DNA of 64,000 nucleotides from Flavobacteriaceae bacterium (lineage in GTDB: Bacteria > Bacteroidota > Bacteroidia > Flavobacteriales > Flavobacteriaceae). Both the position numbers and the translations under genes were made by a program. Where the stretch lies: positions 1 through 64,000 of the forward strand of contig JAGYJA010000005.1 of assembly GCA_018402385.1 (NCBI GenBank), read 5' to 3'. The first letter of the stretch is position 1. Every line of letters starts with the position of its first letter. Under the pieces are notes generated by a model, which saw only the letters and a list, made by a program, of their open reading frames with translations, did not search any database and was not told where the DNA came from. This document shows positions 147 to 14,993 of the stretch, one piece after another.

Positions 147-2393
147 CTAAAACTTCAAAGTCACCCCTGCCAAAAAGTGAATTCCAGCCTGTGGGTAATA
201 ACCGGCACCTTCAATTGTGGTGATGGTTCCCGGGTCTGAAAAATCATCATCATAAGTGAAAAAGTAACCATTTGACACATACTTTACATCAAAAATATTG
301 TTGACCATTCCGTTGAGTAATATGGATGAGAAGACCGGGATGTCTTTAATTTCATACACGATGTTGATGTCGTTGATGAAAAAGCTGTCCAGTTTGGAAG
401 TCTCACTGTCGATATTCCCCATATACTGTTCGCCTACAAACTTGGACAACCAGCCTACTTGAAACCCTTCAAAGGGTTGGTAAATAAACATGCTGTTTGC
501 TACTAGATTGGGTGAAAAGGAAATGTTGGTTGTTCCCAGATTGACCAATTCACCATCTATGGAGGCCACAAAATTGCGGTTTTTGTTTTGGCTGAAAGCG
601 AAATTAGGCATCCAACGCAATTGGTTGGTCAAACGGATGTCTGCTTCTATTTCAATTCCTGCGCGGTAACTTTCACCACTGGTGGTTCGCAATGGTGCAC
701 CTACATCGTTCAACTCACCAGATAGCACTAGTTGGTCTTTGTAGTCCATATAAAACAGGTTGGTGTTTACATTTACTCTTTCAGAAGTGAAACGCCAGCC
801 CAACTCAAAATCATCCAGTATTTCAGGGGTGTTGATACCTTCTTCAAAATCGTTGCGGGTGGGTTCACGGTGAGCCCTTCCGTAGGAAAGGTAAAACTGA
901 TTGGCCGGGTTGAGTTGATAACTCAGTCCGGCTTTTGGGTTGAAGAAACTGTAACTTTCATCTACATCAATAGAAGCTATATCGGAAGTAATCCCGCCGG
1001 TTTCATAATTGATAAAACGGCCTTGCAAATCACCGTATGCCTGCCATTTATCATTTATTTTATAGGTGGCTTTTGAAAACAGGGTAAACTCACGTTTGGT
1101 TGCATCGCTAAAGTAGTAATTGTCCCTGATTTCAGAACCGGCTGCATATTGTGCCCAGATGATTTCGCCAAAGTGGTCGCCTTCATATAAACTGTAAAAC
1201 AATCCTGAAGTAAGTTCGAGATTTTCTTTTTTATAGGTGGCATTGGCATTGATGACATAGTAGTCATTGTCCAGCCAGCGTCGGCGAATGAGGTTCATAC
1301 TGCTGATGGTGTCGCCTTCCACGACGATGGGTTCAAGTCCATAGGTTTCAAAAGGGTCGTCTTCACGGTATTGCTCAAAAAAGCCTCTGCCATAGGTATA
1401 ATTCAATCCTATTGTTGTTGACCAAAAGTTGTTCCAGCGTTGGTTCCAGTGGAGTTGGTAGTGGTCTTGTTTGTAATCGTCCACTTCGTTGTCGTAAAAT
1501 TTCATATTCCCTTCAGCATCAAAATACATACCCGCAGGATTGAATGTTCTGTCTTCTTCCAGGGTTTCAGCATCAATGCCAAACCAACTTTGATAAGTCA
1601 CCTCATGTCCGCCAAAGGAAATCGCTTTAATCAGGGTATTGTCATCAACATAGGAGCCCTGCAGGAAATAGGATTTTAAATCGGATGATGCTCTGTCAAT
1701 GTATCCATCTGACGCGATAGCTGAAAGTCTTCCTGCGATTTCGATATGCTCGTTGAGCAAACCGGTAGTGAATTTCAAATTGTGCCTGCGGGTGTTAAAA
1801 CTTCCGTAGCTGTTTGAGATTTCACCTCCTGCTTCTTTTGAAACGGCATCTGTAAGCAGGTTTAAACTGGCACCAAAAGCCCCCGAGCCGTTGGTGGATG
1901 TGCCTACACCACGCTGCAATTGCAGGTTTTCAATGGAGGAAGCAAAATCAGGTAAATTCACCCAAAAGGATCCTTGACTTTCAGAATCATTAAAAGGAAT
2001 TCCGTTAAGGGTCACATTTACGCGGGAGGCATCACTACCACGCACACGAATGTAAGTATAACCCACACCAGCACCTGCATCGCTGGTACTCACAACTGAA
2101 GGCAAATAATTTAATAAGATGGGGATGTCCTGCCCTAAGTTGCGTTTTTCTAGTTCTTCTTTGCTTACATTGGAGTGGGTAATAGGCGAATCTGCATCAA
2201 CCCTAACGGACCTGACCAATACCTCGTCCAGTAGTTCGGGTTTGTTAAGGGTGTCGTTTTCCTGTTGCGCAAGAAGCGAGCTAACAGTTAAAAGAGTTAA
2301 ACAAACAAATACTAAAGATTTGCTGGTTTGAAAATAGAAAATTGATTGACGAGATGCCTGCCTACGCAGGCTTGAGTTGAATAAAGTTTTCAT
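147..2393 (-). CDS. TonB-dependent outer-membrane receptor (plug + beta-barrel), under TPP-riboswitch control
   Basis: 748-aa ORF with signal peptide and TonB-box/plug-like N-terminus (DEVLVRSVR...). C-terminal aromatic residue typical of beta-barrels. TPP aptamer and attenuator lie directly upstream on the same strand. Confidence 0.8.
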   Translation of the reverse strand: MKTLFNSSLRRQASRQSIFYFQTSKSLVFVCLTLLTVSSLLAQQENDTLNKPELLDEVLVRSVRVDADSPITHSNVSKEELEKRNLGQDIPILLNYLPSVVSTSDAGAGVGYTYIRVRGSDASRVNVTLNGIPFNDSESQGSFWVNLPDFASSIENLQLQRGVGTSTNGSGAFGASLNLLTDAVSKEAGGEISNSYGSFNTRRHNLKFTTGLLNEHIEIAGRLSAIASDGYIDRASSDLKSYFLQGSYVDDNTLIKAISFGGHEVTYQSWFGIDAETLEEDRTFNPAGMYFDAEGNMKFYDNEVDDYKQDHYQLHWNQRWNNFWSTTIGLNYTYGRGFFEQYREDDPFETYGLEPIVVEGDTISSMNLIRRRWLDNDYYVINANATYKKENLELTSGLFYSLYEGDHFGEIIWAQYAAGSEIRDNYYFSDATKREFTLFSKATYKINDKWQAYGDLQGRFINYETGGITSDIASIDVDESYSFFNPKAGLSYQLNPANQFYLSYGRAHREPTRNDFEEGINTPEILDDFELGWRFTSERVNVNTNLFYMDYKDQLVLSGELNDVGAPLRTTSGESYRAGIEIEADIRLTNQLRWMPNFAFSQNKNRNFVASIDGELVNLGTTNISFSPNLVANSMFIYQPFEGFQVGWLSKFVGEQYMGNIDSETSKLDSFFINDINIVYEIKDIPVFSSILLNGMVNNIFDVKYVSNGYFFTYDDDFSDPGTITTIEGAGYYPQAGIHFLAGVTLKF

Positions 2394-2454: not shown

Positions 2455-2645
2455 AACTGTATAAAAAAACCCTTAATAAGACGCTCGAGCCGAATTATAA
2501 AGGGGGTCCATACACAGTTGAAGCATTTTGCTTCTGTCCCTTGGCAGCATTACCCGCCCAGGTTCATTGGGTATAATCTCAGCCGATTTGGTAGTTGTTT
2601 ATTAGTTAATGGTTATTAGAAAAACTAACCTCTCACCACTAATAA
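2455..2645 (-). promoter_or_regulatory. TPP (thiamine pyrophosphate) riboswitch with intrinsic-terminator expression platform
   Basis: Minus strand reads GGCUGAGAUUAUACCCAAUGAACCUGGGCGGGUAAUGCUGCCAAGGGA. This carries the conserved THI-element blocks CUGAGA, ACCC, UGAACCUG, GUAAUGC and AGGGA. Downstream are a GAAGC-AAAAU-GCUUC hairpin and a CCCUU..AAGGG stem followed by U7, consistent with an attenuator. Confidence 0.75.
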
Positions 2646-2695
2646 CTCACCACTTCCTCCAGCACCCCTTTGAGATGGGGCAAAGTTACTAGTTA

Positions 2696-3100
2696 TTAAT
2701 CAATTTTTGGAGGTTTTCTAGTTGATTTTTTAAGTGCTTTTTCTTTCTTTGATTTTAGGCGTTTTTCAATGGCTCCTTTTGAAGGTTTGGATTTCTTTCT
2801 CGGTTTCCTGACTTTAAGATTCTCTTTTATGAGGTTCAAAAAGCGTTCAATCACAATGGATTTGTTTTTATGTTGGCTGCGGCTTTCGCTACAGCTTAAA
2901 AGGAGGACATTTTCTTTAGTCAGTCGCGATGCCAGTTTCTCCTGAAGTCTTGCTTTTTCATCCTCTGAAAGCCCTTGCGAATTTTGCAAGTCAAAACTCA
3001 ACTCGATGCGTGAGGCGACTTTATTGACGTGCTGTCCACCGGCACCGCTGCTGCGTGTGGCTTTAAAGGTGAGTTCGTTGAGGAGGACTTCTGGATTCAT
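2696..3100 (-). CDS. arfB: Alternative ribosome-rescue factor ArfB (YaeJ-type peptidyl-tRNA hydrolase)
   Basis: 134 aa with GGQ motif (SSGAGGQHVNKV) and a Lys/Arg-rich C-terminal tail. Confidence 0.8.
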   Translation of the reverse strand: MNPEVLLNELTFKATRSSGAGGQHVNKVASRIELSFDLQNSQGLSEDEKARLQEKLASRLTKENVLLLSCSESRSQHKNKSIVIERFLNLIKENLKVRKPRKKSKPSKGAIEKRLKSKKEKALKKSTRKPPKID

Positions 3101-4629
3101 TAGATTACTTGATGACTGTCTTTCAATAAATCATTCACCGTTTTTACCGGATTGAAGGTGCTTAAAGGCACTTCCACAAAGAGTGTGTTCCAATGCGCCA
3201 TACTTCCGTTCCAAAGGCCCGGGAGTTCCAGTGCTTTGATAGTTTTTCCCTGATGGCTTTTTTGCGAAATGAAACCCGAGTTGGGATTTACGTAGCGTAA
3301 TAAATCAAATTTTTCGCCTTTATAATTTTTAAGTCCGCACACCAAATCCACCGGATTGAAGTGGGTGGCTTCATTAACGATGTTCATTTGATGGGTGTCT
3401 GAGATGTCCACTTGAGATAGCTCGACGATTTGAAGTGTGGTAGTTCCATCCGGTCTTTGAATCCAAAATGGGCCACCACCCGGGGCGCCGGTGTTTTGAA
3501 CCATACCGCAAACGCGGATGGGTCTGTTCAGAATGTCTTTTGCAGTCTCAAGGCTTTCCGGCAGATTTTTAATGTTGAGTTCTGAGGCCATAAATCCGCG
3601 GACGTCCCTTAAAAGTGTTTGGTCTTTTGGGAATTTATCAATGCTTTTTAAAAGCTTAAAGGCCTTGGCCTGAACTTCCAAAAGTTTTCCCGCCAGGATT
3701 TTTTTATGAAATGCGATTTCTTCTACCTGACTTTCAACGACCACATTGTCAATGTTTTTGATGAAAACGAGATCGGCGTCAATGTCGTTGAGGTTTTCAA
3801 TCAAAGCTCCATGACCGGCCGGGCGAAAATGAAAATTCTTTTCAGCGTCTCTAAAAGGTTTATTATTTAAGGTGACGGCAATGGTATCTGTGCTTGATTT
3901 CTGAAAAGAATAAGAGATGTTGAAATGGCATTTTGCTTTTCGTTCCACACGGTTTTTTATATCGATAAACTCACTTTTGAAATTCTCAACATAGTGTTCT
4001 GAAAAAGTAAAATGCAAATAAGATTGGTTTTGGCTTGTGGCATAATGACCGGCTTCCAGTAGTTGTTCTTCAAATGCGGTTGCTGTGTTTTTATTGTAGC
4101 GGTGAAAGGGGATAAGCCCTTTGGGTAAATTGCTGTAATTTAATCCTTCTTCTCCCAGCAGCGTTTTTACTAACAAATATGTGCGTTTACCTTTTTTATA
4201 GAATTTGTAATCGGGATACAGTTTTCTGATTTTTTTGCGAAGGGCTTTGATAAAGGCGAAATGTGGCAAGCCTTTTAAAAAGGCTTCAAGCATTTGCGTT
4301 TCGTTTTCCTTGAGATAAACATTGAGTTTTTGCTCTTCAGGATTGTATGAATCAACAAACTGATGCAAATGTTCAAACATTCTGGTAGCTGCACCTGATG
4401 CCGGAACAAATTTTACTACGGAAAGAGTATCCTGATTTTTTTCATAAAAAGTGACTAAAGCATCTTGATGTTCTTTTGAAAATGTAAGGATGCCATTGTT
4501 ATGGGTTGCAGCACTTATGAGATGTGTAAACGGAATGCCTTCTTCAAACTTAAGTATATCTGACAACACTTTTTCCTCTGTGAGGCCGTGTGCTTTGATT
4601 TGTTCTATTTCTTTTTTGGTAAACTTCAT
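3100..4629 (-). CDS. DUF4301-family protein (conserved partner of PnuC/NRK loci in Bacteroidota)
   Basis: 509-aa ORF overlapping both neighbours. Contains Gly-rich PAGHG and TGAPGGGPFW motifs. Family assignment is from memory. Confidence 0.45.
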   Translation of the reverse strand: MKFTKKEIEQIKAHGLTEEKVLSDILKFEEGIPFTHLISAATHNNGILTFSKEHQDALVTFYEKNQDTLSVVKFVPASGAATRMFEHLHQFVDSYNPEEQKLNVYLKENETQMLEAFLKGLPHFAFIKALRKKIRKLYPDYKFYKKGKRTYLLVKTLLGEEGLNYSNLPKGLIPFHRYNKNTATAFEEQLLEAGHYATSQNQSYLHFTFSEHYVENFKSEFIDIKNRVERKAKCHFNISYSFQKSSTDTIAVTLNNKPFRDAEKNFHFRPAGHGALIENLNDIDADLVFIKNIDNVVVESQVEEIAFHKKILAGKLLEVQAKAFKLLKSIDKFPKDQTLLRDVRGFMASELNIKNLPESLETAKDILNRPIRVCGMVQNTGAPGGGPFWIQRPDGTTTLQIVELSQVDISDTHQMNIVNEATHFNPVDLVCGLKNYKGEKFDLLRYVNPNSGFISQKSHQGKTIKALELPGLWNGSMAHWNTLFVEVPLSTFNPVKTVNDLLKDSHQVI

Positions 4630-5204
4630 TTAGGAACGTTTAAAGCATTTTCAACCAGTTTTTTTGCTGTTTCCAATCGTTTTGAATAATCTCCTTTTAA
4701 GGTGATATATGAACTATTGTTTTTTTTGAGCGCTTCTTCAAAAACTTGAAACATGGCTTCCCGGTCATTGGGTTTGTCTCTTAAATCATCTGCTTCCCAT
4801 GGAATGTCAATATATAATAAAAAATAAAGATCATAGTGGCGACTCTGGGCTTCTTTTTCAATTTCTTTTGGGCAAAAGCCGTTGTAATACACTTCAGAAT
4901 AGGCTTTGAGTTGCAACAGATTGGTATCGTAAAAAACTACTTTATCAGCATTATTTTCGGCGAAAACTTCATTTTTTATTTGTCCTTCTGCGATGGGAAT
5001 TAAATCCTGTTTTTGACAAGTTTCTTTGGAGTCATCCCATTTTTTCTGAAGGTATTCCCTCATATATTCAGCAGCCCAGGTAGTGTTGAAGTGAGCAGCA
5101 AGGTCTTGTGACAAGGTTGTTTTTCCTGTAGATTCCGGTCCAAAAAAGACAACTTTTAAGAGTTTTTTGCCTGAAGTGTTGGGTTGTTGATTATTTTTCT
5201 CCAT
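4626..5204 (-). CDS. NadR-type ribosylnicotinamide kinase-like AAA ATPase (RNK domain only)
   Basis: Walker A motif VVFFGPESTGKTTL and NadR C-terminal kinase-like sequence. The likely start is MEKNNQQ at 5204; the ORF track extends to 5315 and overlaps pnuC. Confidence 0.65.
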   Translation of the reverse strand: MEKNNQQPNTSGKKLLKVVFFGPESTGKTTLSQDLAAHFNTTWAAEYMREYLQKKWDDSKETCQKQDLIPIAEGQIKNEVFAENNADKVVFYDTNLLQLKAYSEVYYNGFCPKEIEKEAQSRHYDLYFLLYIDIPWEADDLRDKPNDREAMFQVFEEALKKNNSSYITLKGDYSKRLETAKKLVENALNVPK

Positions 5205-5797
5205 TCCAGATAGCCGTAAATTGCTATGATTGTAAAAATTAAATATTGCAAGGATGTAAAGGTATAACCTTTGTACAAATATAAGGGTACCGAAATAATA
5301 TCTCCGGCAATCCAAAACAGCCAGTGTTCAATTTTCTTTTTGGCCATGAGCCACATCCCGACAAAAAACAGTGCTGTTGTGAATGTGTCAACAATGGCTA
5401 CCCAGTCATTCCACATATCAAAAAACCGGTACACAAAATAGACAAACAAAAGTGCGGCAATAAAGAGAAAGAGAGACTGTAATTTTTCTTTTTTTATGCT
5501 GAATGTGATGGGGGTTAAGTGGCTTTGATTCACTTTTCTTGTCCAGACATACCAACCGAAAACACTCATGATAAAATAATAACCGTTGATGAGCATGTCA
5601 CCAATGAGTTCCCACTGGTAAAGCAAATAGACAAAAATGAGTGTGCTTACAATGCCCGTTGGAAAAACCAGAATGTTGTCTTTTTTGGCAAACCAAACCG
5701 AAAGCAAACCAAATACAACAGCTACAATTTCAAGAGTTATATAAAGCGTAGAATAGCCGCTATATTGACCAAACAACCAATCAAAAATGAGGAACAT
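5156..5797 (-). CDS. pnuC: PnuC-family vitamin transporter (nicotinamide riboside PnuC, or PnuT-like thiamine transporter)
   Basis: 213 aa, multi-TM, PnuC-like sequence (WLMAKKKIEHWLFWIAGD). Confidence 0.75.
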   Translation of the reverse strand: MFLIFDWLFGQYSGYSTLYITLEIVAVVFGLLSVWFAKKDNILVFPTGIVSTLIFVYLLYQWELIGDMLINGYYFIMSVFGWYVWTRKVNQSHLTPITFSIKKEKLQSLFLFIAALLFVYFVYRFFDMWNDWVAIVDTFTTALFFVGMWLMAKKKIEHWLFWIAGDIISVPLYLYKGYTFTSLQYLIFTIIAIYGYLEWRKIINNPTLQAKNS

Positions 5798-6041
5798 ACT
5801 CGCTGCGGTTTGATTTTACAATCTTAATGTAGAGCACACCTCTTTCAACTGCCTCTAGTGTTGTTTTCATTTCGGAAAGAAGCACTTTCATCACGGTATC
5901 ATAATCGCCATAAATTTGCGTACTAAGTGGATTTTCAACAGTTTTTAATCCGGAATCTCTTAACTTTTTTATAAAATCGATAATGGGTTGTTCATAGTTA
6001 TCCTGAAGGGGGGAAAGCGTTAATTCTACTGAAATATCCAT
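5781..6041 (-). CDS. MTH1187/YkoF-family (DUF77) thiamine-binding protein
   Basis: 86 aa, ISVELTLSPL...DNYEQPIIDFIKKL. First gene of the overlapping operon. Confidence 0.55.
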   Translation of the reverse strand: MDISVELTLSPLQDNYEQPIIDFIKKLRDSGLKTVENPLSTQIYGDYDTVMKVLLSEMKTTLEAVERGVLYIKIVKSNRSEYVPHF

Positions 6042-6101
6042 AGTTTTAATCTATATTGTTTTTTAATAACTCAATAACTCAATAACTCACAAACTCAAAG
6101 A

Positions 6102-7073
6102 CTACTCCTCATAAACATGGAGCTTAGCTCCCATGCCATAATTGTTGTATCCTTTTTTAAGTAATTCTGAATTGGGGTTGTAATTGAAATCAAAGGGCTG
6201 CCATTTTCTATCATTAAAAAAGATGCGCCTTACCAAGGTTTTTTGCCCTGAAATTTGGTTTGTAAGCGGTAACAAAGGTCTGAAAGAAATTGCAATTCTT
6301 TCTATTCCTCTTGGGGTTTCATATTCATTATATGTTTTGGTTTGTACCAAGTTTCCATCAGCATCTGTAGGACCTAACACTTGAATAGAAACAAACAGCC
6401 CGTTTTCGGGTATAAAAATATTGTTTTTGAGCACATCCAATTCATAGACATCCTTTTTTTCTTGTTCGGTGACGTTGAAAATTACATTCCCATAAGAGAT
6501 TTCCATTCCGGGAAGGCCGTTGTTATTTTCATAAAACTTAACACGCATCAAGGTTGAAAATTTCCTTACTTGAATAACTTTTCCGGCAACTTCTTCTTTG
6601 ATGTTGATGGGCAATAAGAGGGTGGTAATTTGTGTGGGTTTGTTGTCAAATTTCGTAAATAAAACTGCCATTTCACTTTCTACGGTTTGAAGCCAGGAGT
6701 CGTGATAACTGGAATGAGTAATGGGTTCTATCTCACGTCTTTTATATTTACCATCTCTTTTGGTCGTGATTACAACTTCTTTTAATTGATCAATCTCCTG
6801 TTTCAAGGCATAGGCTTCTTTAATTTCTGATGTTAGAATAGTTAAGTTTTTGTAGCCTAAAGCCGAAACGAATAGCGTATCAATATCGGGATATCTTTTT
6901 TGTTGATAAAGGAATTCGCCATTAGCATTTGCATGGGTGCCCAGCCCATTACCAAAAGAAACGGTTACAAATGAAACCGGCCCCTTAGTTTCTGCATCAT
7001 AAAATTGCACCATCTGTCCGGAAGCAAAAAAGCTTATAAAAAGAAAGGTAATTGTAAATAGTATATTTTTCAT
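6102..7073 (-). CDS. Hypothetical secreted protein
   Basis: 323-aa ORF with N-terminal signal peptide; no recognised domain. Confidence 0.4.
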   Translation of the reverse strand: MKNILFTITFLFISFFASGQMVQFYDAETKGPVSFVTVSFGNGLGTHANANGEFLYQQKRYPDIDTLFVSALGYKNLTILTSEIKEAYALKQEIDQLKEVVITTKRDGKYKRREIEPITHSSYHDSWLQTVESEMAVLFTKFDNKPTQITTLLLPINIKEEVAGKVIQVRKFSTLMRVKFYENNNGLPGMEISYGNVIFNVTEQEKKDVYELDVLKNNIFIPENGLFVSIQVLGPTDADGNLVQTKTYNEYETPRGIERIAISFRPLLPLTNQISGQKTLVRRIFFNDRKWQPFDFNYNPNSELLKKGYNNYGMGAKLHVYEE

Positions 7074-7817
7074 AATCCTGAGTTGTAATTATCCTTTTCA
7101 AATGCAGTGCCAATAACAGCCAAAGTAGCACCTGCATTATACACCTGCTGTAATTCATTTTCTGATTGGATGCCGCCCCCCACAATAAGGGGAATCGCTA
7201 ATGCCTCACTGACTGCTTTTATAATTTCATTGGAAACACGATTTTTTGCACCGCTTCCGGCTTCTAAATAGATGAGTTTTTTCCCCATATATTGCCCTGC
7301 CAGGGCTGTGTGAACAATTTTTTGAATGTCCTCTTGAGGGAGAGGTTTAGTTTTGCTCACCCGTTCTACGGCACTTTGAATTCCACCGTCAATTAACAAG
7401 TATCCTGTGGGTATAATTTCCATTGTGCTTTCTTTTAAAACGGCAACCGACCTGTATTTGTTGGGTGATTAAATATTCAGGGTTGTTGCCTGAGAGTAAA
7501 CTTAAGAATAAAATGGCATCTGCATTATTGGATATGTGGTCTGCATCTCCCGGAAAAAGAAAAAGGGGGAGTTGGGTTACTTGATTCAAAGCGGCAACGG
7601 TAGATTCTGTTTGTTCTTTTGTAGTTGTACTTCCGCCAACAAAAAGATGGGTGGTGTTTTTTGGTATTTTAGTTAGAAAATGAGTTGCGTTTTGTGAGTC
7701 AAATTTTTCAGGATCAATGAGGATTGCCAGTAGCTTTTGCTTTTTGGAATAGGCGTTTAAAATGTAAGAGTAGTAGTGACTCATAAATTTCTTTTTTAGC
7801 AAATGGCATAAGCACAA
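7070..7817 (-). CDS. Geranylgeranylglyceryl-phosphate synthase family (PcrB/GGGPS-like) protein, interrupted by a 1-nt frameshift near 7449-7456
   Basis: N-terminal ORF 7389..7817 (LLAILIDPEKF...FVGGSTTT...SLLSGNNPEYLITQQ) and C-terminal ORF 7070..7423 (EIIPTGYLLID...IPLIVGGGIQSENELQQVYNAGATLAVIGTAFE) are colinear with B. subtilis PcrB. The alternate frame reads SVAVLKESTMEIIP across the junction. Confidence 0.7.
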
Positions 7818-8471: not shown

Positions 8472-9804
<1,333 letters not shown>

Positions 9805-11098: not shown

Positions 11099-12109
11099 TT
11101 ATTGGGTAAGCCCTAATTTGGCTAAATCATAGAAATAAAAATTCTTTTCATCATTCATTGCGACAAACAAGCCATTTTTAAAGGTTTCATTGAGCGGAAT
11201 GGTTACCACTTCACATCCATCAGTCTGTTTTGTGTTTAAGTTGATTTCTTTTATAAAGGTGTTGTCTTTTCGGGAAAACACATTGAAGGTTTCTGCTTGT
11301 TGATTGGACACTATTATATAGCCTTCCCCATTTTCATAAGCAACAATGGCAATTCCTTCATTGTCTCTTTTAAAAGTCTCGCCACCAAAACAAGCCAATT
11401 CTTCATCTCCTTTTGAGGGGTCTGCGTGGTATTTTCTAACACAATGTGTCTCGTCTGAATAGTACACAAAACCCAAGGCGTCGTCAACAGCTATGGCTTC
11501 TATTTCTTTTTTACCACTGAAATTTCCAAATTTCCTCACCAAATTTACAGATACGCCTGTGCTATCTGAATTTACTTCAAACTGGTGTAAATAACCTGTA
11601 TCCGGGCCATTTTTTCTACCCACGATGAGGTATAGGGTACTATCAACTTGTGACTGGTAGAAACTAATTCCCATAGGGAGATCAAATTCAAGTTCTGTTT
11701 CCCCTTCAAAAACCGGAAACCCTCCGTTATCCATGGGTGTCATATCCGGGATTGAAAATAACCTTATTTGCTTACGTTCCCTTTCGGTGAATGCCAATAC
11801 ATCAACTTTGGTAGAATCATTGAGTTTAAAATCATATCTAATGTCCACATTATTGGGTCTTTTTAAACCCCTTATTGTTTTATTTTCTATGATTTTTCCG
11901 TCTAAATCAAAGGCATAAATGGCGCCGTCTGTATCTTTATCTGTTCCAAAGACGATGCTTTCTGATGGGTTTTCTTTATTGACCCAAATTGCCGGATCGT
12001 CAGTATCGTGGAGTGTGGTTTCTGTGATAACATCTGGAGGTGTTCCCGGCAATTTTTTCTGGCAGGAAATTAATAAAACGATACTCAAAAGTAAAAAGGT
12101 GCTTTTCAT
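11099..12109 (-). CDS. Beta-propeller phytase-like (3-phytase family) lipoprotein
   Basis: Lipoprotein signal (LLISCQ) and DDPAIWV motif characteristic of BPP phytases. Confidence 0.65.
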   Translation of the reverse strand: MKSTFLLLSIVLLISCQKKLPGTPPDVITETTLHDTDDPAIWVNKENPSESIVFGTDKDTDGAIYAFDLDGKIIENKTIRGLKRPNNVDIRYDFKLNDSTKVDVLAFTERERKQIRLFSIPDMTPMDNGGFPVFEGETELEFDLPMGISFYQSQVDSTLYLIVGRKNGPDTGYLHQFEVNSDSTGVSVNLVRKFGNFSGKKEIEAIAVDDALGFVYYSDETHCVRKYHADPSKGDEELACFGGETFKRDNEGIAIVAYENGEGYIIVSNQQAETFNVFSRKDNTFIKEINLNTKQTDGCEVVTIPLNETFKNGLFVAMNDEKNFYFYDLAKLGLTQ

Positions 12110-12128
12110 ATTAGAAGTTTTAAGTTAA

Positions 12129-12149
12129 AAGGGCGCTTGTTGCGCCCTT
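12129..12149 (-). terminator. Hairpin between TonB receptor and phytase gene
   Basis: AAGGGCGC-TTGTT-GCGCCCTT; weak T tract. Confidence 0.4.
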
Positions 12150-12176
12150 TGGAAAATTAACTAACAAATAAATATA

Positions 12177-14993
12177 TTAAAATATATCATATTTCAAGCC
12201 CAATGTTAAACGTCTGTCATAAAACTCAACTTGTTGTGTTCTCTCTTTAACACCTTGATAATATCTTAAGGGCTGATTGGTGATGTTATTCAAGTCAGCA
12301 TAGATTCTTAAGTTCTTAGTGAAGGCATATGTAACGTTAAAATCAAGGAAGAATTGCTGGTCATAATACCTGTCTTCAAAATTGTTTCCTCCAAGTTCAT
12401 CTATATAAGCATCAGAAAAGTTTCCTGAAATTCTTGCACTAAATTTACCATCACCATAGGATAAGGAACCGTTGAACATGTTGGGTGAAGCGCCGGGAAG
12501 TTCTAAATCCCCTCTTTGATCACCGTCTTCATTTCTAATTCCATTGGCCTCTGAGGTTAAATACGTATAGTTTAAAAAGATTCCAAAGTTTTTACCTATT
12601 CCCGGGATAAAGTCCAGTTGTCTTTGAAAGGAAACTTCTGCTCCAGCAACATAAGCATCATCTCCGTTTTGGGGTTGGAAGGTTCTAAAGCCGGCATTGG
12701 GTTGTCCGGCAGCTACTTCACCTACTTGTGTATAGATAAAGTCATTAATTCTTTTGTAAAACACACCACCAGAAAGCAGTCCAATGGAGTTAAAGTAATG
12801 CTCCGCCATGATGTCAAAATTCATAGAAGTTGTTGGATCAAGCTCTGAGTTACCTAAAACTATTTCTTCATCTTCAGTAATAACATCAACAGTTGGCACT
12901 AAATCTTCATAATTAGGTCTAGCCAAAGTGTTTGTCCAGGCAAATCTTAAAACTGTTTTGTCTGTTACATCATATTTAAAATGAACACCTGGTAAAATGT
13001 TTGAGTATGAACTCTCATCAGTAATTTGACCGATAAGTTCTTCTTCCTCCAAAATTTGATTCCCAGTAGCAGTTATTTTAGTGGCCTCTAATCTAACACC
13101 AGCTAACACACTAAAATTATCTGATAATTTTTGGTTTGTCATTACATAACCTGCAAATACATCCTCGCTAACCTCATAATTGGCTCTTAAATATTCATCA
13201 GGAACATCTTCAAAGTCAAATAAGTTAGAGTTGCTCAAATCTAAACCTCCCAGAAATCTTGGATCCATAAAGGACCCTGCTGCATATTGCCCGCCTGCAA
13301 GATAATCAGGGTCTGTGTAGTCTCTTACTGGAACATCTGCTAAAGTGCCAAATGCCTGTGGGTTTTCTGCTGTGGGCTCATATTCAAAAAAGTTATTGTC
13401 CCTAAATTTGTTTTTCAATCGCATTCTGGCACCCATTTTAATTGTACCGTCTCCTTTTCCAAAAAAGTCTGCAGGTAATGAAAAGTTTACAAGACCATTA
13501 AAATCTTCTTCTTCAGTATATTGATTTTCTTCTTCAATAGAGTTTAATGTAAATTGATCCAATGTAACTTGACTTGGGTCTGCAGGTGAAAATGAAGGAA
13601 ATTCAGGATCAGAAAAGTCAGCATTTAGCGTGACATCTTTATTACGATATGACGCATATCTTTCATTAAGTCTTTCCTCAGATGCCTTTGCGTAAGAAAA
13701 AAGCCAATCAATTTGTAAATTGTTAATTAAGTGTTCACCATTCAACGTGTAGTTTTGCATACGTTGGTCTTCCAAGCGGGTGTTTTTATTCCTATTATTA
13801 TCAATTCCCCCTTTTGTCTGTCTTCTCATCCTTCCTTCATAGCCCACGATATTTTCTGTTCCAGTTGCAAATAACGGTTCAATATCATCATATCTTAGAC
13901 GCAATCTATTTTCACGGTCATCTCTCCAATTGTACATAGATTTGAAGAAAATGGTATTGTTTTTATCAAATGAATAATCAAAGTTTGCAGAAAAACTTCT
14001 TCTTACACGTTGAACTAAATAAACTCTTATATCACTTTCTTCGACATAAGGATTTACAGTTATATCTTCGCCTGTTATAGGGCTTTCTACTTCATTAGCC
14101 CAAACGGCTTCCACGTTGTCTGAGCCAAAATCGTTGTCATTGATTGAGGCAGCAAGCATCCACCCAAATTTTTTGTTTTCAGATTTATCGCCTACTAAAA
14201 AGGAACCGTTTAAAATGCGTTTATCAGTTATAAAATTTATACCAGAACCCACTGTTGCAGAAAGTCTAAAGTTTTGTGGTGACGAACGTGTAACTAAATT
14301 TACGGAGCCTCCAAGTGCATCACCATCCATATCTGGAGTCACTGCTTTATTCACTTCAATGGTTTGAATCATATCTGATGGAATTAAATCCATCTGTACA
14401 TTTCTATTATCTCCTTCTGCTGAAGGAATTCTACTGCCGTTGAGCGTAACAGAGTTGAGCTCTGGCGCCAAACCTCTCACAATGATATTTCTTGCTTCTC
14501 CTTGATCGACTTGCATAGTGATACCGGGAATACGTTTCATGGCATCGCCGATATTTGCATCGGGAAATTTACCAATCTGATCTGTAGATACAATATTAGT
14601 AATGTTTGCTTTGTTCTTTTGGGTGTTAAGTGCCCTTGCTTGACCTCCCAGAGAGTAGCCAATAATCTCGACAGCATCGAGTTCTTCTGTATTCTCTTTT
14701 AAAACAAAATTTGCCGTAGTTGTTTGACCCGAAATAACAGTCACTTCAATGATGTTGTCATCAAAGCCTAGGTACTTGACAGTTAAATTATGAGTACCTT
14801 CAGGAACATTAAGGATTAAAAATTCGCCATCACCATCAGATATTGAACCTTTTCTAAGTTCTTCAATCAAGACGTTGGCTCCAGGGACATAAATCCCGTA
14901 AGTATCAGTTATAACACCTCGAATGTTTCCATTCTGTGAAGTGCCGACATAAAATGATAGTAAAAATAAAGCTAGTAAGTAGTTTGTTTTCAT
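12177..14993 (-). CDS. TonB-dependent receptor with N-terminal carboxypeptidase-regulatory-like domain (SusC-like)
   Basis: 938 aa with signal peptide, CarbopepD_reg-like N-terminus, plug domain, and a C-terminal Phe. Confidence 0.85.
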   Translation of the reverse strand: MKTNYLLALFLLSFYVGTSQNGNIRGVITDTYGIYVPGANVLIEELRKGSISDGDGEFLILNVPEGTHNLTVKYLGFDDNIIEVTVISGQTTTANFVLKENTEELDAVEIIGYSLGGQARALNTQKNKANITNIVSTDQIGKFPDANIGDAMKRIPGITMQVDQGEARNIIVRGLAPELNSVTLNGSRIPSAEGDNRNVQMDLIPSDMIQTIEVNKAVTPDMDGDALGGSVNLVTRSSPQNFRLSATVGSGINFITDKRILNGSFLVGDKSENKKFGWMLAASINDNDFGSDNVEAVWANEVESPITGEDITVNPYVEESDIRVYLVQRVRRSFSANFDYSFDKNNTIFFKSMYNWRDDRENRLRLRYDDIEPLFATGTENIVGYEGRMRRQTKGGIDNNRNKNTRLEDQRMQNYTLNGEHLINNLQIDWLFSYAKASEERLNERYASYRNKDVTLNADFSDPEFPSFSPADPSQVTLDQFTLNSIEEENQYTEEEDFNGLVNFSLPADFFGKGDGTIKMGARMRLKNKFRDNNFFEYEPTAENPQAFGTLADVPVRDYTDPDYLAGGQYAAGSFMDPRFLGGLDLSNSNLFDFEDVPDEYLRANYEVSEDVFAGYVMTNQKLSDNFSVLAGVRLEATKITATGNQILEEEELIGQITDESSYSNILPGVHFKYDVTDKTVLRFAWTNTLARPNYEDLVPTVDVITEDEEIVLGNSELDPTTSMNFDIMAEHYFNSIGLLSGGVFYKRINDFIYTQVGEVAAGQPNAGFRTFQPQNGDDAYVAGAEVSFQRQLDFIPGIGKNFGIFLNYTYLTSEANGIRNEDGDQRGDLELPGASPNMFNGSLSYGDGKFSARISGNFSDAYIDELGGNNFEDRYYDQQFFLDFNVTYAFTKNLRIYADLNNITNQPLRYYQGVKERTQQVEFYDRRLTLGLKYDIF

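Follow-up and report, generated by a model that had tools for sequence, protein, structure and literature searches.

Five co-directional, overlapping ORFs on the minus strand of a marine flavobacterium's DNA raise the question of which vitamin they salvage, and of what the DUF4301 protein among them does. The earlier note read them as a vitamin-salvage operon in which nicotinamide riboside (NR) would be converted to NMN and then NAD, DUF4301 possibly supplying a missing enzymatic step. We examined the genes and their surroundings in the window, that is, the whole 64,000-nt stretch of DNA analyzed (table 1).

Table 1. Features of the operon and of the unit downstream of it (positions in the window)
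Feature	Position	Strand	Length	Basis or remark
MTH1187/YkoF (UPF0045) thiamine-binding family protein	5781..6041	-	86 aa	PF01910; first gene of the operon
Pnu-family vitamin facilitator (annotated PnuC)	5156..5797	-	213 aa	PF04973, TIGR01528
Stand-alone P-loop kinase, homologous to the NadR ribosylnicotinamide-kinase (RNK) domain	4626..5204	-		AAA_28
DUF4301, predicted NTP:phospho-acceptor nucleotidyltransferase	3100..4629	-	509 aa	PF14134; UDP-sugar-pyrophosphorylase fold
ArfB, peptidyl-tRNA hydrolase (ribosome rescue)	2696..3100	-	134 aa	NF006718 equivalog
Putative -7 promoter box, Bacteroidota type, TAACTTTG	2681..2688	-		Read from sequence; 8 nt past the ArfB stop codon
TPP-riboswitch-like aptamer, variant	2520..2679	-		RF00059; 71-nt insertion in P3
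Terminator-like hairpin and U7 tract, putative expression platform of the leader	2463..2508	-		RNA fold of 2440-2690
TonB-dependent receptor, ortholog of the Bacteroides thiamine receptor (OMthi type)	147..2393	-		Plug and barrel domains

The five-gene operon is real: coordinates and families agree with those first reported, and the genes follow one another in the order PF01910 protein, Pnu, RNK-only kinase, DUF4301, ArfB. Their overlaps, previously given as 1–48 nt, were essentially right; read from the sequence, they measure 17 nt (PF01910 protein/Pnu), 49 nt (Pnu/kinase, if the kinase starts from its ATG at 5204 and not, as in the mechanically called ORF, from a TTG at 5315), 4 nt (kinase/DUF4301, ATGA), and 1 nt (DUF4301/ArfB, TAATG). 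Because these tight junctions were found again in 80 species-level loci, where the median tblastn distance is ~12 nt between kinase and DUF4301 and ~9 nt between DUF4301 and ArfB, the arrangement is not due to chance. ArfB, supported by its equivalog model (133 bits, cut-off 100) and by a GGQ motif and basic C-terminal tail visible in the translation, is adjacent in 73 of 78 loci; in the four closest relatives (L001, L002, L003, and L005), 0.6–1.7 kb of unrelated genes separate it from DUF4301. Its place in the operon, noted earlier as unexpected, is thus that of a conserved neighbor, a co-transcribed and tolerated passenger, and not of a demonstrable pathway member.

DUF4301 (661 bits against PF14134) is predicted to be a nucleotidyltransferase because it folds like the UDP-sugar pyrophosphorylases of eukaryote type (UGP, UAP1/AGX; PF01704). 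The AF2 model (pLDDT 95.6, pTM 0.93) retrieved from the PDB, by Foldseek, 48 top matches that were all UDP-glucose or UDP-GlcNAc pyrophosphorylases (E-values down to 3e-10, TM ~0.5), and PF01704 matched 20 of 89 family members, the window's protein weakly (19.6 against a cut-off of 22). Both Gly-rich motifs that had been likened to nucleotidyltransferase loops are present, PAGHG at residues 270–274 and GAPGGGPFW at 381–389, and both are conserved across the family: G272, H273, G274, G384, G385, and P387 are invariant in the 89 sequences, as are S78, G79, R83, M84, K170, N292, D294, N295, E403, and K496. Parallels with the UGPase motifs also extend to their order: a Gly-rich NTP loop (SGAATRM), GHG, NIDN, IVE..Q, and a C-terminal VK lysine. 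Identity to UGP/UAP1 is just 10–18%, however, and, unlike theirs, the gene for DUF4301 keeps company with those for a vitamin channel and a kinase of nucleoside type. Scoring of this co-occurrence showed that DUF4301 adjoins the kinase in 75 of 79 species loci and is accompanied by Pnu in 72 of 78, and that in four divergent lineages the kinase (AAA_28) and DUF4301 are fused into one protein, encoded each time directly downstream of a Pnu gene. These linkages, the overlapping stop and start codons, the fold and PF01704 matches, and the usual co-location of Pnu genes with a kinase trapping their substrate (PMC5749112) make it probable that the general logic of the cassette is to transport, phosphorylate, and nucleotidylate.

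The kinase (148 bits against AAA_28; Walker A GPESTGKT) has, as claimed before, the RNK domain only: profile searches found neither an NMNAT domain nor an HTH, and NadR models match by their C-terminal RNK part alone. Its best PDB matches are all NadR proteins (E 9e-18 to 3e-14), and along its entire domain it shares ~35% identity with the RNK domains of NadR. This homology does not fix the substrate as NR, because RNK-like kinases also stand beside thiamine-type Pnu genes and canonical TPP riboswitches, in Persicobacter and in seven loci from metagenomes, from which it follows that kinases of this kind serve Pnu proteins of thiamine type as well. The window's kinase is 29% identical to the Persicobacter enzyme. 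Nor was a missing enzymatic step established, since pairs of Pnu and an RNK-only kinase are common without DUF4301 or an NMNAT domain (~60 of 80 metagenome loci).

The Pnu protein scores 183 bits against PF04973 and 107 bits against TIGR01528, aligns across its core with Neisseria mucosa PnuC (4QTN), and has the WxxWxxxD motif (W159-W162-D166). Among reference Pnu proteins the most similar is the Bacteroides PnuT ortholog (B. finegoldii; 35% identity, E 7e-34), compared with 25% identity for Escherichia coli PnuC (E 1e-15). In a tree that, like the kinase phylogeny, lacked firm resolution, the window's Pnu belonged to a distinct clade, apart from the two reference groups; Persicobacter-type Pnu grouped with TPP-regulated proteobacterial Pnu (quartet support 96%). 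The alternative that the PnuC homolog is a PnuT thiamine carrier was well judged. No firm clustering with NR-specific PnuC was obtained, and the protein lies outside the clade of TPP-linked Pnu proteins. The first gene, described as YkoF-like, is a thiamine-binding-family member at the Pfam level (PF01910, 31 bits, cut-off 24.9) but not by TIGR00106 (19.8 bits, under its cut-off), and has a weak PDB match to MJ1052 UPF0045. It is tightly conserved (its best 120 homologs are 72–100% identical), stands upstream of Pnu in 54 of 78 loci, and has a counterpart preceding a thiamine-type Pnu-kinase pair in locus L139.

The earlier note stops at ArfB, and the TPP-riboswitch-like leader and TonB receptor beyond it are absent from its account. 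The putative -7 box, identified by the established Bacteroidota promoter consensus, has a TAnnTTTG counterpart at the equivalent position ahead of the leader in 73 related leader-carrying loci. The aptamer scores under the RF00059 cut-off (32.2 against 54.3 bits; E 1.6e-4), yet it shares with the canonical TPP riboswitch P2, P3, the J3/2 CUGAGA, the ACCC strand, a P4/P5 hairpin with GUAAUG loop, and a position ahead of a thiamine-uptake gene. Its core (GGGGUGC...GCUGAGA...ACCC...GAACCU...GUAAUG...AGGGA) is kept in all 74 leaders, in which P2, P3, and P4–P5 are 99.6% paired, with five compensatory pairs. Unlike in RF00059, all that is left of J4/5 and J5/4 is one bulged G or a G·A mismatch, equivalents of C77/G78 are absent, an invariant UCUCAAA lies 5' of P2, and P3 inserts reach 126 nt. 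The J5/4 'CG', the pyrophosphate-sensing bulge of TPP aptamers, is absent from all 74 flavobacterial leaders; of the two halves of the aptamer, the one that senses the aminopyrimidine is kept and the pyrophosphate half is not. The 5' arm of the hairpin, ACCCCCUUU, appears complementary to the aptamer's AAAGGGGU. Because the Pnu-kinase operon is upstream of the leader it is outside the leader's control, and no riboswitch was detected upstream of the operon.

Over its full length, the receptor shares 40% identity with its B. finegoldii counterpart, which heads a TPP-riboswitch/receptor/PnuT/TPK operon (L083, the copy used for comparison); it is 45% identical to that of Persicobacter. In Bacteroides thetaiotaomicron (BT2390/BT2396-97), thiamine uptake by the receptor-PnuT-TPK system was shown genetically (PMC5613172). 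The two loci have in common the orthologous receptor with a TPP-type leader ahead of it, a Pnu facilitator, and a cytoplasmic trapping kinase, which is TPK in Bacteroides and an RNK-like P-loop enzyme in the window; the window adds DUF4301, the PF01910 protein, and ArfB, its Pnu operon precedes the leader, and its aptamer lacks the pyrophosphate-sensing bulge. The Persicobacter locus (L084) and the seven metagenome loci (L107, L159, L160, L167, L170, L173, and L175), from Cytophagales and uncultured Bacteroidota, have Pnu, kinase, leader, and OMthi-like receptor in the window's order and orientation (receptors 41–50% and kinases 29–32% identical), and in Persicobacter Pnu and kinase overlap by 4 nt; they differ in having a canonical aptamer and a Pnu within the TPP-regulated clade, and in lacking DUF4301, ArfB, and, mostly, the PF01910 gene. 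A Sphingomonas locus joins a TPP riboswitch, a receptor, an APH-type kinase, and Pnu. A TPP-type leader and OMthi ortholog follow the operon on the same strand in 67 of 74 loci, and in Hyunsoonleella the receptor's usual place is taken by the operon for thiamine biosynthesis, which has a canonical TPP riboswitch.

These neighbors, the PF01910 gene overlapping Pnu, the closeness of the Bacteroides PnuT ortholog, and the grouping of Persicobacter-type Pnu lead us to propose, tentatively and at just under an even chance, a thiamine-family compound as substrate. We know of no thiamine pathway that requires a nucleotidyltransferase, and TMP is converted to TPP by ThiL, which leaves DUF4301 without an established role; the Pnu outside the TPP-linked clade, the operon outside leader control, and the scarcity of receptor or TPP elements near metagenomic members of the clade to which the window's Pnu does belong (none in 33 of 40 long loci) also stand against thiamine. 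Adjacency is by itself weak evidence here, since flanking genes of unrelated function (AhcY, a PPTase, PcrB-like) keep their synteny too. The kinase's NadR relatives likewise speak against thiamine and favor the pathway first assumed, in which PnuC would import NR, the kinase would make NMN, and DUF4301 would be a non-orthologous NMN adenylyltransferase, the thiamine receptor being an independent unit adjacent by inherited synteny, as the conserved unrelated flanks allow. NMN + ATP -> NAD + PPi is chemistry of the kind done by UDPGP-fold enzymes, Pnu passes the PnuC model, and NMN, an endogenous metabolite, would explain DUF4301 standing alone in Desulfobacterota and Brocadiaceae, where a thiamine context is absent. 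The pairing of RNK domain and nucleotidyltransferase, fused in some lineages, mirrors the two-domain logic of NadR (PMC2330246) and the PnuC-NadR systems of Haemophilus, Salmonella/E. coli, and Lactococcus, although the domain order is reversed (kinase N-terminal), the HTH is lacking, and a UDPGP fold replaces the HIGH-motif NMNAT fold. However, the pathway has no evident gap to fill, translational coupling joins RNK-like kinases to Pnu genes of thiamine type elsewhere, the neighbors here are thiamine-type, and neither NAD-related genes nor an NAD riboswitch were found near the operon. Nor does Pnu cluster with NR-type PnuC. NR to NMN to NAD was not established as the pathway, and we consider it somewhat less likely than a thiamine-family substrate.

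It is improbable that DUF4301 is a housekeeping UDP-sugar (e.g., UDP-glucose) pyrophosphorylase that, like ArfB, just happens to be transcribed together with a vitamin module of Pnu and kinase. Its fold and motif order would fit, ArfB is an example of an unrelated gene carried in the operon, DUF4301 is kept in Capnocytophaga, L066, and L076, where Pnu and kinase are lacking, and outside Bacteroidota, where the gene stands alone, two of its five contexts are near sugar-phosphate genes (PGM/PMM and PFK in L092; a ROK kinase and G6PD in L102). Four divergent fusions of the kinase to DUF4301 would, however, be hard to explain if the enzymes were unrelated, their genes adjoin with overlapping codons in 75 of 79 loci, and by sequence inspection KNIDNV does not keep the sugar-side residues of UGPase 'NIDNLGA'. 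To our knowledge, neither Pnu transporters nor nucleoside-kinase-fold enzymes handle sugars. Similarly doubtful is a cassette for another cationic vitamin or nucleoside, such as riboflavin (to FMN and FAD), a thiamine precursor like HMP, or a modified nucleoside. In its favor are the half of the aptamer that the leader retains, the binding of the HMP moiety by YkoF-type proteins, the separate clade of the window's Pnu, and the several B-type vitamins that the Pnu family is known to carry (PMC5749112), but positive evidence for any particular alternative is absent and, by profile searches, the kinase is not of riboflavin-kinase or ThiD type.

If the substrate is of the thiamine family, the OMthi-type receptor would move thiamine or an aminopyrimidine-bearing compound over the outer membrane, and the compound would diffuse over the inner membrane via Pnu; the small PF01910 protein may bind it, the kinase would trap it as a phosphate ester, and DUF4301 would move a nucleotidyl group from an NTP to the phosphate, releasing PPi and a nucleoside-diphosphate conjugate. 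The best explanation is a vitamin-uptake locus made of two units, in which the five genes serve the cytoplasm and inner membrane and the riboswitch-controlled TonB receptor directly downstream is the other half; judging by the neighboring genes, thiamine (B1) is no less likely to be the vitamin than the NAD precursor assumed earlier.

The five genes that the earlier note had read as a vitamin-salvage operon are present as it described them, all on the minus strand, and Pfam and NCBIfam upheld each of its family assignments. The kinase gene is taken to start at 5204, the sole in-frame ATG ahead of the Walker A motif; stop and start codons overlap by 4 nt (ATGA) between the kinase and DUF4301 genes and by 1 nt (TAATG) between those of DUF4301 and ArfB. 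The 86-aa protein encoded by the first gene matches PF01910, the MTH1187/YkoF thiamine-binding family (31 bits, cut-off 24.9), and falls under the cut-off of TIGR00106 (19.8 bits, cut-off 54.7); its closest PDB match is weak (E 0.06), and the only homologs found were close flavobacterial relatives, which brought no fresh gene contexts. ArfB exceeds the cut-off of the NF006718 equivalog (132.7 bits, cut-off 100), and its translation contains GAGGQHVNK, with the GGQ motif, and a Lys/Arg-rich C-terminus. A search upstream of the operon found no riboswitch. The gap there holds a tandem repeat, whose number of matches was reached by 14 of 100 shuffles, and comparable short repeats occupy the intergenic spacers and leader P3 insertions of related loci (e.g. 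L012, L022 and L036). Judging from the sequence, the PcrB-like and S-adenosylhomocysteine hydrolase genes of the window look frameshift-split and could be assembly errors or pseudogenes.

Coordinates of the operon, leader, receptor and neighboring features in the window.
Feature	Position	Strand	Details
PF01910 gene	6041..5781	-	17-nt overlap with Pnu gene
Pnu gene	5797..5156	-	49-nt overlap with kinase gene if the latter starts at 5204
TPP-like leader element	2520-2679	-	160 nt; RF00059, 32.2 bits vs. cut-off 54.3, E 1.6e-4
Terminator-like hairpin with U7 tract	between TPP-like element and receptor	-	RNA fold
TonB-dependent receptor gene	2393..147	-	thiamine type (OMthi)
Tandem repeat of 8-nt unit GAGTTATT	6065-6096	-	3-4 copies, in 60-nt gap 5' of operon
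PcrB-like gene	7070-7817	-	ORFs of 117 and 142 aa; one gene of ~240 aa in relatives
S-adenosylhomocysteine hydrolase gene	8487-9804	+	118 and 317 aa; 438 aa in relatives

DUF4301 is a large family (2,732 cluster representatives at E≤0.001, and at least 262 genome stretches with one genome per species), on which our literature search returned one unrelated proteomics paper and no prior link to a kinase. The AlphaFold2 model of the window's protein, built on an alignment of 89 homologs, has a pLDDT of 95.6 and a pTM of 0.93. In a Foldseek search of the PDB, its first 48 places are all taken by UDP-glucose or UDP-GlcNAc pyrophosphorylases of the eukaryote type (best E 3e-10, TM ~0.5), with bacterial RmlA-type enzymes ranking far behind. 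The nucleotidyltransferase fold that the earlier note had suspected is thus found in the predicted model, as the UDP-sugar pyrophosphorylase type. At the sequence level, PF01704 (UDPGP) scores 19.6 bits on the protein, below its gathering cut-off of 22, and matches 20 of the 89 relatives at E≤0.01; a single-sequence search gave a marginal match to yeast Ugp1 over the C-terminal 100 residues, including the lysine of "PVKT", and the family alignment used as a profile against the PDB returned no match even at E 10. The Gly-rich motifs from which the suspicion had arisen lie at residues 270-274 and 381-389, and each contains residues invariant among the 89 diverse homologs. SGAATRM, GHG, NIDN and VK496 are invariant in this alignment, and IVE..Q is also present. 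We take SGAATRM to resemble the NTP loop of UGPase, K496 to correspond to its C-terminal lysine, and GHG, NIDN and IVE..Q to have UGPase counterparts, a match made in part by eye; the residue-by-residue alignment to Ugp1 covers the C-terminal part of DUF4301. Together, the fold, the weak PF01704 and Ugp1 matches and the motif parallels lead us to predict that DUF4301 is an NTP:phospho-acceptor nucleotidyltransferase. The HIGH-motif NMN/NaMN adenylyltransferases (NadD, NadR-AT and NadM, with (H/T)xGH) are absent from its Pfam, NCBIfam and fold-search matches; a role in forming NAD would make DUF4301 an analogue of these enzymes and not a member of their family.

The gene neighborhood ties this predicted activity to the kinase. 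We examined 80 species-level genome loci with a DUF4301 relative (identity 45-92%; Flavobacteriaceae in nearly every case) and found the kinase directly upstream of DUF4301 in 75 of 79, Pnu in 72 of 78 and the PF01910 protein in 54 of 78, with ArfB directly downstream in 73 of 78, followed by a TonB receptor orthologous to OMthi, the thiamine-type outer-membrane receptor, in 67 of 74; the proposed co-occurrence of DUF4301 with both kinase and transporter is therefore borne out. Moreover, natural AAA_28-DUF4301 fusions occur in four divergent protein clusters, with both domains intact and differing linkers, and every fusion gene lies directly 3' of a Pnu gene. Fusion in some lineages, adjacency and overlapping codons together argue strongly that first the kinase and then DUF4301 act on the compound imported by Pnu, and the general logic of the cassette is probably to transport, phosphorylate and nucleotidylate. 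DUF4301 is also found in Desulfobacterota, Syntrophobacteria and Brocadiaceae (39-50% identity), where it stands alone in varying contexts. Of the five examined, one has PGM/PMM and PFK as neighbors, another a DAO-family oxidoreductase and a third a ROK kinase with G6PD nearby, and two have no telling neighbors. The active-site invariants are common to all phyla sampled, so that the acceptor is probably a compound of the cell's own metabolism as well; NMN, TMP/TPP and sugar-1-phosphates all fit.

ArfB is bound to the operon less tightly than the kinase-DUF4301 pair, because in the four closest relatives of the window the gap between DUF4301 and ArfB holds genes for small secreted proteins that are unrelated to the operon and run in either direction. 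These insertions, of which the window has none, measure 0.6-1.7 kb (L001, 11531-13190; L003, 11531-12294; also L002 and L005), and their small products are lineage-specific and either secreted or like lipoproteins; the insertion of L001 also contains a second copy of 230 nt from the 3' end of DUF4301.

In Pnu-type uptake a vitamin diffuses in and is then trapped metabolically, and it is the enzymes doing the trapping that decide which vitamin the cell retains. The window's transporter matches PF04973 over residues 21-201 (183 bits, cut-off 27.3), aligns to residues 42-234 of 4QTN and has the TM6 motif WxxW(x)3D/N, as W159-L-F-W162-I-A-G-D166. We rejected WxxWxxxD/N as a discriminator between nicotinamide riboside (NR) and thiamine transporters, as the NadR-linked Pnu proteins of Leptospira and Nostoc carry D like PnuT, and a comparison of specificity-determining positions between TPP-linked and NR-type Pnu gave no clean columns. 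The protein is 35% identical to the PnuT ortholog of Bacteroides finegoldii (E 7e-34), whereas it shares 25% with Escherichia coli PnuC (E 1e-15). In neighbor-joining trees assessed by bootstraps and quartets, it and both flavobacterial subtypes group with further kinase-linked Pnu proteins from metagenomes. This clade excludes the TPP-linked proteins, which have a clade of their own, and the NR references, namely those of E. coli and Vibrio plus the NadR-linked ones of Leptospira and Nostoc. The quartet joining it to Bacteroides PnuT against Leptospira plus E. coli received 81%, with the deep branching order not settled by the tree. The Persicobacter-type Pnu grouped with TPP-regulated proteobacterial Pnu proteins (quartet support 96%), and its grouping with Bacteroides PnuT received 5%. 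Of the two identities considered by the earlier note, NR-type PnuC and thiamine-type PnuT, neither is refuted by this phylogeny: the window protein clusters with neither set and belongs to a clade of its own. Within one genus (loci L008-L039, Winogradskyella and relatives; gene at ~8840-9470), the Pnu proteins fall into two groups by their identity to that of the window, ~48% and ~66%, and the flanking genes are uniformly ~50-55% identical, which suggests that two Pnu subtypes have been exchanged at the same locus. Elsewhere, Acinetobacter plasmids and a Sphingomonas replicon (L087/L091, L088/L090) have genes for a receptor, an APH-type phosphotransferase and Pnu clustered together, in Sphingomonas under a canonical TPP riboswitch (66 bits) and in that order; their Pnu proteins, annotated as nicotinamide riboside transporter PnuC, probably belong to thiamine systems.

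The TPP-like element lies 3' of ArfB, ahead of the receptor only, and leaves the pnu gene outside it. Eight nucleotides past the ArfB stop codon is TAACTTTG, presumably a Bacteroidota-type -7 box. The receptor itself is 40% identical over 763 columns (full length) to that of B. finegoldii and 45% identical to that of Persicobacter. In B. finegoldii, its counterpart belongs to an operon of a canonical TPP riboswitch, receptor, PnuT and thiamine diphosphokinase (TPK), an arrangement genetically shown in Bacteroides thetaiotaomicron to mediate thiamine uptake (PMC5613172). At the Rfam gathering threshold, six loci related to the window gave no TPP match, and the leaders of related loci were recovered by searching for their motifs and by inspection. 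The flavobacterial leaders, 74 in all (73 loci and the window; ArfB-receptor gap of L001-L080, ~11950-12300), share one variant form, which keeps the pyrimidine-sensor half (P2, P3 and J3/2 CUGAGA) and the GUAAUG loop and in which P4-P5 is one continuous 9-bp helix with a single bulged G or G·A mismatch. The J4/5-J5/4 internal loop with its conserved CG is absent from all 74; the J5/4 CG is retained by the thiC leader of a locus from the same family (L076) and in Bacteroides (L083), Persicobacter (L084), Sphingomonas (L090) and seven metagenome receptor leaders. In the thiM structure, C77 and G78 of J5/4 contact the pyrophosphate through Mg2+. Across 34 distinct sequences, 99.6% of helix cells are paired, with compensatory changes at five pairs, a level reached by 0-1 of 500 shuffles. 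The variant leaders also share an invariant UCUCAAA 5' of P2, complementary to UGAGA of J3/2, and have P3 insertions of 6-126 nt. The variant tracks DUF4301, all 74 leaders of DUF4301 loci being variant vs. seven canonical leaders without DUF4301; the exception is L142, in which a variant leader directly follows the kinase. Our literature search found no description of a pyrophosphate-less TPP variant, and we offer this leader as a lead, a ready candidate for altered ligand specificity.

The window's kinase is similar over its whole domain to NadR structures (E 9e-18 to 3e-14), with GPESTGKT, DT and PW..D..R aligned. The earlier note had credited it with the ribosylnicotinamide kinase (RNK) domain alone, and indeed it covers only positions 165-324 of TIGR01526 and 233-407 of PRK08099, with scores far under the cut-offs; these NCBIfam NadR models place no NMN adenylyltransferase domain in it. 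In neighbor-joining trees with bootstraps and quartets, the RNK domains of NadR form a clade (86%), the DUF4301-linked kinases, fused ones included, stand apart from the stand-alone ones, and the receptor-linked kinases are scattered among the remaining stand-alone kinases, with deep nodes not settled. A search for TPK that covered the window and every locus had matches in Bacteroides only. In Persicobacter (Cytophagales; L084, 4974-8756), Pnu is followed by an RNK-like AAA_28 kinase (4-nt overlap), a TPP riboswitch whose pyrophosphate-sensor nucleotides are canonical, and the receptor; the DUF4301, ArfB and PF01910 genes are all absent from this locus. A scan of metagenomes with the kinase alignment returned 80 loci, of which about 60 have Pnu directly upstream of a stand-alone RNK-like kinase, and none of these ~60 contains an NMNAT domain or DUF4301. 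Among the 40 loci with at least 4 kb of downstream sequence, seven (L107, L159, L160, L167, L170, L173 and L175) have a same-strand OMthi-like receptor behind a canonical TPP aptamer, which reaches the Rfam cut-off in two; L175 also has an above-threshold SAM-II riboswitch match unrelated to the operon (873-931, minus strand). One short contig (L139) encodes PF01910, Pnu and the kinase. The uptake theme thus recurs with three kinase families: TPK in Bacteroides, the APH type in Sphingomonas and the RNK-like type in Persicobacter and the metagenome loci. Some RNK-like kinases, at least, therefore work with Pnu proteins of the thiamine type, so that the rule equating an RNK homolog with an NR kinase fails and the substrate cannot be inferred from homology. 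The stand-alone RNK-like AAA_28 kinases, translationally coupled to Pnu genes beside canonical TPP riboswitch and OMthi-like receptor units, point to an unrecognised family of thiamine-trapping kinases, of which we found no report in the literature.

Which compound the flavobacterial cassette handles can be weighed on this evidence. To a thiamine-family substrate we give slightly less than an even chance, because the PF01910 gene is translationally coupled to Pnu, almost every locus has a TPP-type leader and an OMthi ortholog on the strand of the operon, the Pnu-kinase-leader-receptor order recurs with a canonical riboswitch in another order of Bacteroidota, and the Bacteroides PnuT ortholog is the reference Pnu most similar to that of the window. 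Hyunsoonleella adds a thiamine biosynthesis operon at or beside the locus: its thiamine biosynthesis genes adjoin DUF4301-ArfB where the receptor normally sits, L076 (11548-17252) has thiS/thiC, thiE and thiG behind a canonical TPP riboswitch and has lost Pnu and the kinase while keeping DUF4301, and L049 (11998-15712) has thiF, thiH, thiG and thiE on the opposite strand. NR salvage, in which Pnu would import NR, the kinase convert it into NMN and DUF4301 make NAD, is possible but rather unlikely. In its favor, the kinase is clearly similar to NadR, the pairing of kinase and DUF4301 would be exactly analogous to that of RNK and NMNAT, the operon is outside the control of the leader, unrelated flanking genes (AhcY, PPTase and PcrB-like) are syntenic as well, and we know of no thiamine pathway that uses a nucleotidyltransferase. 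It is improbable that the operon is a mosaic in which DUF4301 is a housekeeping UDP-sugar enzyme riding along, and marginally more so that other substrates are involved.

Returning to the thiamine reading, its most far-reaching form would make DUF4301 a TMP/TPP nucleotidyltransferase yielding adenosine-thiamine-di/triphosphate-like conjugates, the leader a new riboswitch specificity for the altered thiamine pool, and the Pnu-paired RNK-like kinases of Bacteroidota a third, unrecognised family of thiamine kinases; we hold this combination to be a long shot. To our knowledge, no gene has yet been assigned to making adenosine-thiamine-di/triphosphate conjugates.

The gene families and the operon logic of Pnu with a trapping kinase were already established (PMC5749112); new are the predicted role of DUF4301 as the nucleotidyltransferase partner of the kinase, the RNK-like kinases that serve thiamine-type systems and the pyrophosphate-less leader. 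DUF4301, a large uncharacterised family, can now be treated as a nucleotidyltransferase wired physically and genetically to a trapping kinase, and would represent a novel class of NAD-forming enzyme or else the first to join thiamine uptake to a nucleotide conjugate. Annotation by homology of NadR-like "NR kinases" beside PnuC is unsafe, as some clearly serve thiamine systems, and this affects predictions of B-vitamin auxotrophy for marine and gut Bacteroidota. Among marine consumers of vitamin B1, Flavobacteriales are a major group (PMC8552899), so that what this pathway is bears on how vitamin traffic should be modelled.
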